Positions 59,161 through 64,000 of a stretch of 64,000 nucleotides of DNA are shown here, piece by piece. The DNA is from Dictyostelium discoideum. Its lineage: Eukaryota. Below the pieces are notes generated by a model. The model was not told where the DNA came from. It saw only the letters and a list, made by a program, of their open reading frames with translations, and did not search any database. The position numbers were made by a program, and so were the translations under genes. The DNA is taken from positions 224,001-288,000 of the forward strand of contig CM000152.2 of NCBI GenBank assembly GCA_000004695.1. Direction: 5' to 3'. Position 1 is the stretch's first letter, and each line of letters starts with the position of its first letter.

Positions 59161-59163
<3 letters not shown>

Positions 59164-59844
59164 TCAATTAATTTAGATAATGAAGAATTAAAAAATGAAG
59201 ATTTAGTTGCAAATATGAGAAAAGATTATAGAATGGGAGAATTAAAAGAAGAAGGATTATTAGAATCACCATTTAAAATGTTTGATATGTGGTTAACTCA
59301 AGAGATTGAATTGAAAAATGAAGGAGCAGAACCAAATGCATTCACATTAGCAACATGTTCAATAGAAAGAAAACCATCAGCAAGAGTTGTATTATTAAAA
59401 CATTTTGATCATCAAGGATTTGTATTCTATACAAACTACAATAGTAGAAAGAGTAAAGAGTTATCAGAGAATCCATTTGCGTCAATGACATTCCTTTGGA
59501 CACAAAAACAAGTTAGAATTGAGGGTAGTGTTGAAAAAGTCGATCGTTTAGAGAGTGAAAAATATTTTAAATCACGTCCACGTAGTTCACAAATTGGTGC
59601 ATGGGTATCAGAATTTCAATCATCAGAAGTAACCAAACAACATTTAGAAGAGAAAACAATTGAAATGGAGAATAAATTCAAAGATCAAGAAGTACCTTTA
59701 CCACCATTTTGGGGTGGTTGGAGAATTAAACCTTATGCTTTTGAATTTTGGCAAGGTAAAAGTGGTAGAATTCATGATAGATTTAAATACGTTCCAACTG
59801 ATTCAAATAATGATAATTGGATTACAAAGAGATTATCTCCATAA
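59161..59844 (+). CDS. Pyridoxamine/pyridoxine 5'-phosphate oxidase (PNPO / PdxH family, FMN-binding). 227 aa, intronless.
   Basis: Family signatures are present: ATCSIERKPSARVVLLKHFDHQGFVFYTNYNSRKSKEL..NPFASMTFLW...RQVRIEG.VEKV...ESEKYFKSRPRSSQIGAWVS.QS....R..LE......KF....VP.PPFWGGWRIKPYAFEFWQG...RIHDRFKY. This matches PdxH, including the C-terminal WGGxR...EFWQG...RLHDR block. Confidence 0.85.
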
Positions 59845-59983: not shown

Positions 59984-62396
59984 CTAAGGTATATTATTGA
60001 ACATACCCTTTGATTCACTACATTGACTTCCATCATTTGAAACTTTAATGTTAACATTTGAAGGTTGATTTGGTGCATTTGGTGGTACCTGACAAATGAT
60101 AGTACCTTGTTCATAAAAAGTGGCAGTTACACTAGTTGAACCAAAATAAACTTTTAGATCACCTGTATTTGAAAAGTTTGAACCTAGAATTACAACTCTT
60201 GTACGAGCTTTTGCTGATGCTGGAATAATTTCGCTAACAGTTGGTGGAAATGGTACTATAATAATAATAATAATAATAAATAAATAATAAATGATAATTA
60301 GTATATATGCATATTTTTAAACTATTTTAAAATAAAAAAAAAAAAAATTTACCATCTTGTTTATCAATTAAATAAATTGTATGAGAGAATACTTCAATTG
60401 GATCAGAAAGTACAGTTGCTTCAGGAAAAGTTTGAGATTCATTTGATATATATTTTTTTAAAACAAATTTTAATCTAAAAAGTGTTCTTAATTGTTGAGT
60501 AGTTGATAAAATTTTTAATTTTTTGAAAGGAGCGAAACCACCAGTGATACGTGATGTCTTTGTACCATCGATATAATTGACCAATTCAGTTTGATTATCA
60601 TTTCTTAATAGGGTTACTTCGACATAGAAATTTGAGAAATTCTCTGTATCTACACCAGGTCCACAAATCATAACTTGTGGGAAAGGTTTTAAAATTCTTT
60701 GATAAACAGTTTTTGGTGGTGGTTGTCTTGCAATCTTTAAATAAAAACAATCTGATGGATTATTATTATTATTATTATTATTTGGTGTTATCGCTAATTG
60801 ACGTTGTGGTGTTTGAGTTGGTTGTGATGATGATTTTGATACAGGTGTTGTTAAATTTGGTGTTGATGGTACTGACATAATTGGTGATAGTGGTTCTTTA
60901 TAATTATTTATAAATGGTGAAGATGGAGCGGATGAATTTTCAAAATTATTATTATTACTTTGTACAGGTGAGGTTGGTATTTCTACAGATATATTATTTA
61001 TATTATTATTATTATTATTATTATTTATACTATTTATATTACTATTATTATTATTATTATTATTCCCATTATATATTGGCATTGGTAATGAAATATTATT
61101 ACTACTATTATTATTACTATTATTATCATTTAATTTATTTTGCGGTATTATTGTATTATTTAAAATGTTATTATTTTTATTATTATTATTTTCATTTGTA
61201 AATGTTACACTTGTTGCTAAAATTCTTTTTAAATCTAAAACTGTTGAAGAATCTAATTGAAGTAATGCTAATAGGACAGCTAATAATTTTTTAGATAAAT
61301 TTGAAAACCAATGATGAAATAAGTAAAGATCAGATAGAGGTAACGAGATGATACCAGCAACGAAATGAATGATATCGATTGGTATTGAAGAATCTAAAGA
61401 CATGATTTTTTGAATGTGTAAATAGGTGTTTGAGAGGGACTGATCACCACCCAATGACTGATTGAAAATTCGTAACCTATCAAATGAGGCCAATCTAAAA
61501 TATTCTTGAACATTTAGAAAGAAATTGAATTGAAACTGTGGTGAACCTGGTGGAATGATATTATTGGTTAAATGAAACAATTGCAAATAGCTTATCTTGC
61601 ATAGTAAGTTTGCCAATTCTTTGAAATCCATAAACAACTTGAATGCATGGTTATTCGGATCCTGTAAATAGGTGCTATGATTGGCGATACTCAACAATGG
61701 TATCATCTGTGGCATATCGCTAAACATCTTACTTAACAATGGGAATCGCAATTCCTCGGTCAAATGAGGTTGTAACACCTTACAGAGGAAGAATAAATGT
61801 TGAATGGATTCATGTGCTAATGTCTCCAAATTGCTCAACAACTCGGTCAATTCAGTATTAATATCACCTGTTATAAATGTTTGTTCCATTTGTTGGATTT
61901 GTTGTTGTAATCTTTGAATTTCATTTTGTTCTTGTTGTAACTTTTGTTGTTGTTGTTGCTGTTGTAATAGTAATTCATTTTGTTGTTGCTGTTGTTGTGC
62001 TGCTATTGCTGCTTGTTGTTGAGCTTGTTGTTGTTGTTGAGTTTGTAATAACTGTTGTAATTGTGCTGCTTGTTGTTGTTGTAAAAGTTCAGCTTGTTGT
62101 GTTGCTTGTTGTTGTTGTAATAATTGTTGAGCTTGAATTAATAATTGTTGATGATGTTGTGTTGATGGTTGTGGTTGTGGTGGTAGTTGTTGATGATGAT
62201 GGTGGTGATGATGATGATTGTTTTGTTGTTGTTCAAGTTCAAGTTGATGTGAAAATTCACTAAATGAAGTTAAATTATATCTATTATTTACATTACTAAC
62301 ACTATTATTTAATCCGTATTGATTTGCAAACCCTGTTAAATCAATAGATTGTGATAATCTAAAGCTATCAAATGAGAAATTGTCTGAATTTGACAT
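59984..62396 (-). CDS. Putative transcription regulator, two exons, about 771 aa. It has an N-terminal helical region and Q-rich and N-rich linkers. A Rel-homology-like beta-sandwich segment precedes a C-terminal IPT/TIG domain.
   Basis: Exon 1 (62396..60353) ends at donor GATG|GTAAAT; the ORF tail ...GKFFFFLF is intron read-through. The intron is 97 nt and the acceptor is attattatag. Exon 2 (60255..59984) encodes VPFPPTVSEIIPASAKARTRVVILGSNFSNTGDLKVYFGSTSVTATFYEQGTIICQVPPNAPNQPSNVNIKVSNDGSQCSESKGMFNNIP*, a textbook IPT/TIG Ig-like domain (P.I..i.P..g...GGT.v.i.G.nF......V.FG......f......l.C..P). Immediately upstream, ...CFYLKIARQPPPKTVYQRILKPFPQVMICGPGVDTENFSNFYVEVTLLRNDNQTELVNYIDGTKTSRITGGFAPFKKLKILSTTQQLRTLFRLKFVLKKY resembles the N-terminal Rel-homology/NFAT-like DNA-binding segment (L.I.eQP....YR......P). 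Confidence 0.55.
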
Positions 62397-63422: not shown

Positions 63423-64000
63423 TTATTCAGAAAAATAACTACCTTTCCAACCAACTTGAATGCCTTGTTGTTGAGCATCAATATAGATGAAAGAATCTTT
63501 ATCTAAACCAAAAGATTCAAATGCTTTTTCAGCATTTAACATATAGGAATGAGCACTATTACTAATATCGATTTTTTCATTTTCAGTTAAATTTCTAACA
63601 AATTTAGCTGGTTTACCAACCCAAAGTTCACCAGATTTAATACGAGAACCTTTGGTTAAGATTGAATTTGAACCTAAAATTGAGTTTGCTTCAACGTATG
63701 ATTCTGGTTCCAAAATTGAACCCATTCCAATCAAACAATTCTCTTCGACAGTACATGCTTCAAGTATACAACTGTGACCAATTGTTACTTGATCACCAAT
63801 GATTGTGCTGCCATTGTGGTCCAATGATATTGGCTCATTGGCTTCTCTAATGATTGTACCATCTTGAACATTTGTAAATGCACCAATATGAATGTAATTA
63901 ACGTCTGCTCTAATAACACAGTTATCCCAAACTGATGATCCTACACCTAAATTAACATTACCAATAATTGATGCTGATGGTGCTACAAATTCCCCACCTT
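63423..64000 (-). CDS. Gamma-carbonic-anhydrase-like / hexapeptide-repeat (left-handed beta-helix) protein. Its 5' end lies beyond the window.
   Basis: The minus-strand frame is open to the window edge. It reads ...KVGEFVAPSASIIGNVNLGVGSSVWDNCVIRADVNYIHIGAFTNVQDGTIIREANEPISLDHNGSTIIGDQVTIGHSCILEACTVEENCLIGMGSILEPESYVEANSILGSNSILTKGSRIKSGELWVGKPAKFVRNLTENEKIDISNSAHSYMLNAEKAFESFGL... It has repeated [LIV]-G-x-x-x-x hexapeptides and a gamma-CA / mitochondrial complex-I CA-like layout, ending with stop at 63423. Confidence 0.7.
   Translation of the reverse strand, partial: GGEFVAPSASIIGNVNLGVGSSVWDNCVIRADVNYIHIGAFTNVQDGTIIREANEPISLDHNGSTIIGDQVTIGHSCILEACTVEENCLIGMGSILEPESYVEANSILGSNSILTKGSRIKSGELWVGKPAKFVRNLTENEKIDISNSAHSYMLNAEKAFESFGLDKDSFIYIDAQQQGIQVGWKGSYFSE

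Follow-up and report, generated by a model that had tools for sequence, protein, structure and literature searches.

A Dictyostelium IPT/TIG protein with a velvet- and CudA-like beta-sandwich: a probable transcription factor of a large amoebozoan family

The 64,000-nucleotide stretch of Dictyostelium discoideum DNA analyzed here (contig CM000152.2, positions 224,001 to 288,000; called "the window" below) carries on its minus strand a gene with a coding span, from stop to start, of 59984..62396. Its spliced product of 771 residues is identical, residue for residue, to the D. discoideum AX4 protein XP_002649168.1 (UniProt C7G006), whose public annotation reads "IPT/TIG domain-containing protein". 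C7G006 is probably a sequence-specific transcription factor and belongs to a large family, restricted to Amoebozoa as far as its members carry organism names, with a core of a 13-helix domain, a velvet/CudA-type beta-sandwich and an IPT/TIG domain. The beta-sandwich (residues 546-681; 60354..60761, minus strand, as are all features of this gene) is the presumptive DNA-binding domain and precedes the IPT/TIG domain (residues 686-761; 60017..60244). It is homologous, at a level detectable by sequence comparison, to the fungal velvet domain and to the DNA-binding core of CudA.

Homology of the beta-sandwich to velvet and CudA

The family profile, built from 146 domain sequences, was compared by hhalign with a profile of 120 velvet domains. 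Velvet sequences were obtained for VosA, VelB and VeA, from their PDB entries, and for 120 velvet proteins of diverse fungi. The two profiles align over 125 columns, which is the whole domain, with a probability of 94.4%, an expectation value (E) of 9e-8 and a score of 59.1. A first comparison, in which velvet was represented by the three PDB sequences only, had aligned the two over the full length and in the correct register, at a level short of significance (probability 5.9%, E 0.0064). The CudA-like core sequences came from an alignment in the supplement of Kin et al. 2022 (PMC8808424). Compared alignment to alignment, they match the family over 102 columns with a probability of 96%, an E of 4.3e-9 and a profile identity of about 22%; with the 146-sequence profile the E is 1.1e-7 and the score 54.2, and the probability ranged from 94 to 96% over the runs. 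The aligned motifs include KILSTSQQxGTLFRLKF of the family opposite RIxVLSSQHExxLFRxK of CudA, and SNPIEVFSH opposite SHPIRVVSK.

In control comparisons, for which reversed profiles and the TIG profile of the family itself were used, the E values lay between 0.1 and 0.74, and the best scores among 40 column-shuffled decoys per target were 21.8 for velvet and 17.6 for CudA. HMMER cross-searches connected the sets as well: velvet proteins scored up to 25.8 bits with the family hidden Markov model (HMM), and family members up to 23.9 bits with the CudA HMM. The Pfam Velvet model (PF11754) has no match in C7G006 and matches none of 95 family members at E <= 1, and Pfam holds no model for the CudA core. 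A search of the domain profile against PDB sequences returned a single match, Vps27 (E 0.32), which was rejected as spurious.

The CudA-like proteins (CudA, SpaA, Cdl1A/B, Cdl2, Cdl3 and ECudA of Entamoeba), to whose core of about 120 residues the C7G006 family is homologous, have been described as five ortholog groups with six D. discoideum genes, found by BLAST (Kin et al. 2022, PMC8808424; Forbes et al. 2019). The significant alignment, the shared motifs and the confinement of both families to Amoebozoa would fit an overlooked seventh member of this CudA-like (cdl) family, working like CudA or SpaA. Such an assignment is improbable, given that the profile identity is so low and that velvet scores equally well. 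The N-terminal strand and loop of the C7G006 family, QPPxKTVYQRILKP, aligns with velvet and not with CudA. The architectures differ as well: the CudA core is followed by a basic stretch and a helical tail, whereas in C7G006 the IPT domain occupies this place and the protein has an N-terminal helical domain of its own. Furthermore, the BLAST searches that define the CudA family do not retrieve C7G006, neither the full nor the trimmed CudA-like alignment of Kin et al. 2022 contains its diagnostic peptides, and its gene is missing from the list of six Cud genes given by Forbes et al. 2019.

The differences from velvet proteins (VosA, VelB, VeA and VelC) are of a similar kind. The loop that contacts DNA in VosA, loop A, is six residues shorter in the C7G006 family, and the C-terminal KFPG...QG helix motif of velvet is absent from C7G006. 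Velvet proteins have neither the IPT domain that follows the sandwich in C7G006 nor the helical domain that precedes it. All organism-named proteins among the 120 listed velvet matches are fungal, in contrast to the amoebozoan C7G006 family. Because C7G006 has no Pfam Velvet match, is not retrieved with CudA by BLAST and has another architecture, its family lies outside velvet and CudA as these are now defined, and is best described as a sister family in a velvet/CudA superfamily, one that carries a Rel-type IPT domain.

Predicted structure and the Rel-type arrangement

An AlphaFold2 model of residues 546-771, built with 26 homologues, has a mean pLDDT (predicted local distance difference test) of 92.2. 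Residues 546-681 form a beta-sandwich with a short helix at its end, which has the velvet fold, and the IPT domain follows. The preliminary description of this region, made from the DNA letters alone, had expected a sandwich and an IPT domain here, in agreement with the confident model. The IPT domain has an Ig-like E-set fold superimposable on the IPT domains of transcription factors. It matches Pfam PF01833 over residues 686-761 with 51.7 bits (cutoff 20.9; E 8.9e-14), which bears out the IPT/TIG fold proposed for the C-terminal exon, and PF20144 (TIG_SUH) with 26.5 bits (cutoff 24).

When the model was compared with known structures, VelB (12.7) and VeA (12.6) ranked above the DNA-binding domains of Rel, Runt and STAT type. 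Next came NF-kB p52 (12.5; 149 residues, both domains covered), Runx1 (11.2), p65 (10.6-11.0), STAT6 (10.8), p105 (10.2; 27% identity over 110 residues) and the Dictyostelium STAT (10.1), with NFAT5 (9.6), the NDT80-type MRF (9.1) and CSL (8.8) lower down. The structures matched by the N-terminal sandwich domain are without exception DNA-binding domains of transcription factors. Foldseek, whose ranking favors matches to the two-domain arrangement, placed DNA-bound EBF1 (E 7.6e-10), NF-kB p50 (1.7e-8) and NFAT (2.9e-8) at the top; among its matches to the N-terminal domain, VosA has the highest target-normalized template-modelling score (0.64). C7G006 thus has an s-type Ig DNA-binding domain directly before an IPT domain. 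The folds of all three domains and a two-domain layout like that of Rel, NFAT and EBF are thereby shown, and the earlier placement among Rel/NFAT/CSL/EBF-type factors is structurally supported.

This layout is that of the Rel proteins (NF-kB p50, p52 and p65, NFAT and NFAT5), and C7G006 might be regarded as a genuine Rel/NF-kB/NFAT protein that has diverged strongly, its Rel homology region consisting of an N-terminal Rel homology domain (RHD-N) and a C-terminal RHD-C/IPT domain. Even the order of NF-kB p100 and p105, with their ankyrin tail, is reproduced by paralogues in other Amoebozoa. The sequence comparisons make a Rel member very unlikely. The Pfam model RHD_DNA_bind (PF00554) has no match at E <= 10 in C7G006, whether the whole protein or its C-terminal 225 residues were searched, and the Pfam RHD matches none of the 95 family members at E <= 1. 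The RHD-N of p65, verified to be identical to PDB 2o61_A, gave an E of 0.58 against the family by hhalign and nothing significant against the velvet and CudA profiles, comparisons of low power with p65 as a single sequence. The RHD recognition loop L1, RxxRxRxxC(E), is not present on direct reading, the equivalent loop being PPKTVYQRILKP. In addition, the N-terminal domain of Rel proteins spans about 180 residues with the RHD insert, compared to about 136 residues without the insert in C7G006. By sequence, the domain in front of the IPT domain is not a Rel homology domain. Of the p53-like/Rel subdomain that the preliminary description saw there, the fold has held, with its Rel, STAT and Runx matches, but the Rel homology has given way to velvet and CudA.

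Other factor families were compared in the same manner. Among the Pfam models named for comparison in the preliminary description TIG was matched, but CG-1, like RHD_DNA_bind, was not at E <= 10. COE1_DBD and LAG1-DNAbind/BTD also have no match in C7G006, and a sequence test for STAT membership (a STAT DNA-binding domain with linker and SH2 domains after it) was negative. Compared with EBF/COE, CSL and CAMTA, C7G006 lacks a zinc knuckle, a helix-loop-helix and an IQ motif; the TIG-ankyrin part of CAMTA resembles the ankyrin-bearing members of the family.

A further similarity among these groups is suggestive only. In the final strand of the sandwich, p65 (VLSHPIFD), CudA (VITHPIRV), the C7G006 family (VLSDPIEV) and velvet (VISNPFIV) share a related short motif, and the CudA core aligned with the p65 RHD-N by hhalign at an E of 0.014 over 20 columns.

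Presumptive DNA contacts and function

No motif is better conserved in the family than KTVYQRILKPFP at residues 562-573 (60678..60713), which is aligned with the DNA-contact loop K37-K42 of VosA. In the hhalign alignment the invariant family segment QPPxKTVYQRILKPxP lies opposite the loop-A segment of VosA. Across 146 sequences Y565, P571 and P573 do not vary, positions 567 and 570 are basic in 100%, with R567 itself in 97%, and V564 is found in 92%. Conserved basic residues also cluster a second time, in F624-K-K-L-K628 together with K643, K647 and K648. VosA cannot bind DNA properly without residues K37, K39, R41 and K42 of loop A, which are required for binding, and this loop can be superimposed on the contact between NF-kB and DNA (PMC3876986). 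R567 and K570 of the shorter C7G006 loop align with the K42 region.

By analogy with these proteins, the beta-sandwich would contact the DNA major groove through loop A, V564-Y565-x-R567-x-x-K570-P-x-P, placed where the K37-K42 loop of VosA and the L1 loop of NF-kB lie, and the F624-K-K-L-K628 cluster may assist the contact. The IPT domain would serve as the dimer interface, as in NF-kB, NFAT5 and EBF; the DNA target of such a dimer would be a dyad site. Velvet proteins, in contrast, dimerize through the sandwich itself (PMC3876986), and dimerization of this type is a possible alternative for C7G006. The Q-rich region and the helical domain might function in activation, regulation or partner binding.

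DNA binding has been demonstrated experimentally in both related families. VosA was studied by electrophoretic mobility shift assays and chromatin immunoprecipitation (ChIP), with loop-A mutants included (PMC3876986). In Dictyostelium the CudA-like factors act as transcription factors in development (PMC8808424, PMC5923282); ChIP-seq was used to test SpaA, and promoter binding to test CudA (PMC5923282). In ECudA, mutation of two short motifs is reported to abolish DNA binding (Yamada et al. 2008).

Several observations weigh against a function as a DNA-binding transcription factor, or against the homology on which it is based. DNA binding, nuclear localization and dimerization are inferred for C7G006 and for the other members of its family. 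The most important DNA-binding residues of VosA, K37 and K39, have no equivalents in the shorter loop A. The sequence of C7G006 contains no classical basic nuclear localization signal. The homology profiles are low in diversity (Neff about 2.5). The direct comparison of CudA with velvet by hhalign was not significant (E 0.088, later 0.011), and the three-way link therefore rests on the IPT family as the intermediate. Finally, IPT/TIG domains are also known in proteins that are not nuclear, such as plexins, Sec5 and bacterial glycan-binding proteins.

The last of these points would be accommodated if C7G006 did not bind DNA and its two tandem Ig-like domains served in protein or carbohydrate interactions, for example in a scaffold or trafficking factor resembling Sec5 or the IPT arrays of plexins. 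The RhoGEF domain in one family member (see below) would seem to point the same way, but this fusion may be a gene-model artifact. Such a function is not likely. The matches to non-nuclear proteins are confined to the IPT domain, while those of the N-terminal sandwich are all to transcription-factor DNA-binding domains; the homology to two families that bind DNA experimentally is significant; and basic residues are conserved in the DNA-contact loop. Reading of the sequence also reveals no evident signal peptide or transmembrane segment. A role as a sequence-specific transcription factor agrees better with these observations.

Gene, family and possible origin

A word-indexed search with residues 547-771 found 26 proteins at about 50% identity. 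An exhaustive HMM search with a domain-only profile puts the size of the family at 363 clusters or more (50% identity) for a threshold of E <= 1e-3, of which 265 reach E <= 1e-10. The members bearing an organism name are all amoebozoan: besides Dictyostelium they come from Tieghemostelium lacteum (where the protein is likewise called "IPT/TIG domain-containing protein"), Cavostelium, Clastostelium, Endostelium, Gocevia, Balamuthia, which has several paralogues, and Pelomyxa schiedti. A Pfam TIG domain directly follows the velvet/CudA-like domain in 56 of the 95 longer members. The pairing of the two domains is not due to chance, because it is conserved at about 50% identity in many other organisms. 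The preliminary description had considered an RHD-like domain followed by IPT to be unusual for Amoebozoa; the size of the family shows the arrangement to be common and merely unrecognized before. The 13-helix domain accompanies the velvet/CudA-like module in the family at all times. In one subfamily (P0123, P0127, P0133, P0150, P0153, P0156 and P0158) the velvet-like domain and TIG are followed by four to seven C-terminal ankyrin repeats; these members come from other Amoebozoa, e.g. Gocevia and Clastostelium, and ankyrin-bearing paralogues occur in Cavostelium too.

Some members have further features or unexpected names. Single members carry RhoGEF or WWE domains, and a chromo-shadow domain is found in two (P0037 and P0048 are among the members concerned); these are either real fusions or merged gene models, and some may be the latter. 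The three copies in Pelomyxa schiedti (KAH3756840.1, KAH3767778.1 and KAH3761787.1; P0032, P0035 and P0051) bear the GenBank name "calcium-activated BK potassium channel". Pfam finds TIG alone in one of the three and nothing in the others, and for this reason the name probably reflects a mistake in annotation.

The DNA of the window is rich in A and T and contains coding runs of poly-N and poly-Q. The gene was reconstructed from open reading frames (ORFs) and splice sites. A 689-residue ORF opens at 62396 and runs into a canonical intron of 97 nucleotides (GTAAAT...TTATAG; 60256..60352) in phase 1, situated at the boundary of the DNA-binding and IPT domains. Exon 1 (60353..62396) encodes residues 1-681 and the first base of codon 682, and exon 2 (59984..60255) residues 682-771 and the stop codon (59984-59986). 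The interval given in the preliminary description is exactly this coding span, and both peptide strings quoted there occur in the spliced product. The splice junction, ...YLIDKQD|VPFPPTVSE..., agrees with ...YLxEKxxxxPPTVxE... of the homologues. An artifactual ORF or a pseudogene was rejected, since an annotated protein has exactly the sequence of the product, which is also conserved across Amoebozoa. No paralogue of the gene was found by tblastn elsewhere in the 64-kb window. In the homologue fragments P0014, P0016 and P0017, prokaryote-style gene calls enter junk directly after ...EKQ(D/E)G(T), suggesting that the phase-1 intron at the domain boundary may be conserved in other species.

N-terminal to the sandwich, the protein has three further regions. 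Residues 55-165 (61902..62234) form a low-complexity region rich in Q and H, recognized by direct reading and composition (49% Q, with an H8 run), which is possibly a coiled-coil or activation region. It is followed by the conserved, family-specific all-alpha domain (residues 166-405; 61182..61901) with 13 helices between residues 179 and 393, approximately, for which no similar solved structure was found. A homologue search with an alignment of this region gave no match at E <= 1e-3 among 5679 candidates and did not recover even the sequences that make up the alignment, so that the negative is probably technical and no sign of absence. A linker (residues 406-545; 60762..61181), disordered and rich in N, S and P as judged by its composition, connects this domain to the sandwich; the N content over residues 401-545 is 37%. 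A separate helical domain with Q-rich and N-rich flanks, as first described, is thus present.

The convergent neighboring gene on the plus strand (59161-59844) encodes a pyridoxamine 5'-phosphate oxidase (Pfam PNPOx_N, E 8e-25, and PNP_phzG_C), and the stop codons of the two genes are about 140 nucleotides apart. Upstream of the IPT gene lies an ORF on the minus strand (63423-63824) with hexapeptide repeats of the left-handed beta-helix type, probably an exon of a gene for an acyltransferase or a gamma-carbonic-anhydrase-like protein. It is separated from the IPT gene by an AT-rich 5' region of about 1 kb.

The gene and its IPT annotation were already public. New, as far as the open-access literature searched shows, are the identification of the domain before IPT, its role as a link from velvet to CudA, the variants with an NF-kB-like ankyrin tail and the helical orphan domain. 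No description of the family was found in this literature on velvet or Rel homology in Amoebozoa and Dictyostelium, or on velvet together with CudA. The main text of the transcription-factor survey reports that RHD, CSL, COE/EBF and CG-1 were not found in Dictyostelia, and no factor of IPT/TIG type came up by term search in the published transcription-factor tables for Dictyostelium, as far as these were searchable.

Velvet has been described as fungus-specific (PMC9818462), and the CudA-like factors as amoebozoan-specific and STAT-like; the two have so far been treated as unrelated. The only outside link proposed for velvet is its purely structural likeness to NF-kB (PMC9818462, PMC12614781, PMC3876986). 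The present family can be detected by sequence from both the velvet and the CudA side, carries an IPT domain and in some members has ankyrin repeats. It therefore provides a concrete intermediate for testing a common ancestry of velvet, CudA and Rel. One tentative reading, for which the chances appear less than even by a good margin, is that the family has kept the layout of an ancestral amorphean Rel homology region, namely a small velvet-type sandwich, IPT and optional ankyrin repeats. Velvet, having lost IPT, CudA, with IPT replaced by a helical tail, and the holozoan Rel, NF-kB and NFAT proteins, with an enlarged N-terminal domain, would then descend from it.

The findings define an orphan 13-helix domain and draw attention to a conserved, probably DNA-binding protein in an organism in which knock-outs and ChIP-seq are routine. 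If the ancestral layout has indeed been retained, the NF-kB-type architecture with an IkB-like ankyrin tail would be older than the split between Opisthokonta and Amoebozoa, and D. discoideum would hold an uncatalogued developmental transcription factor of this ancestral type.
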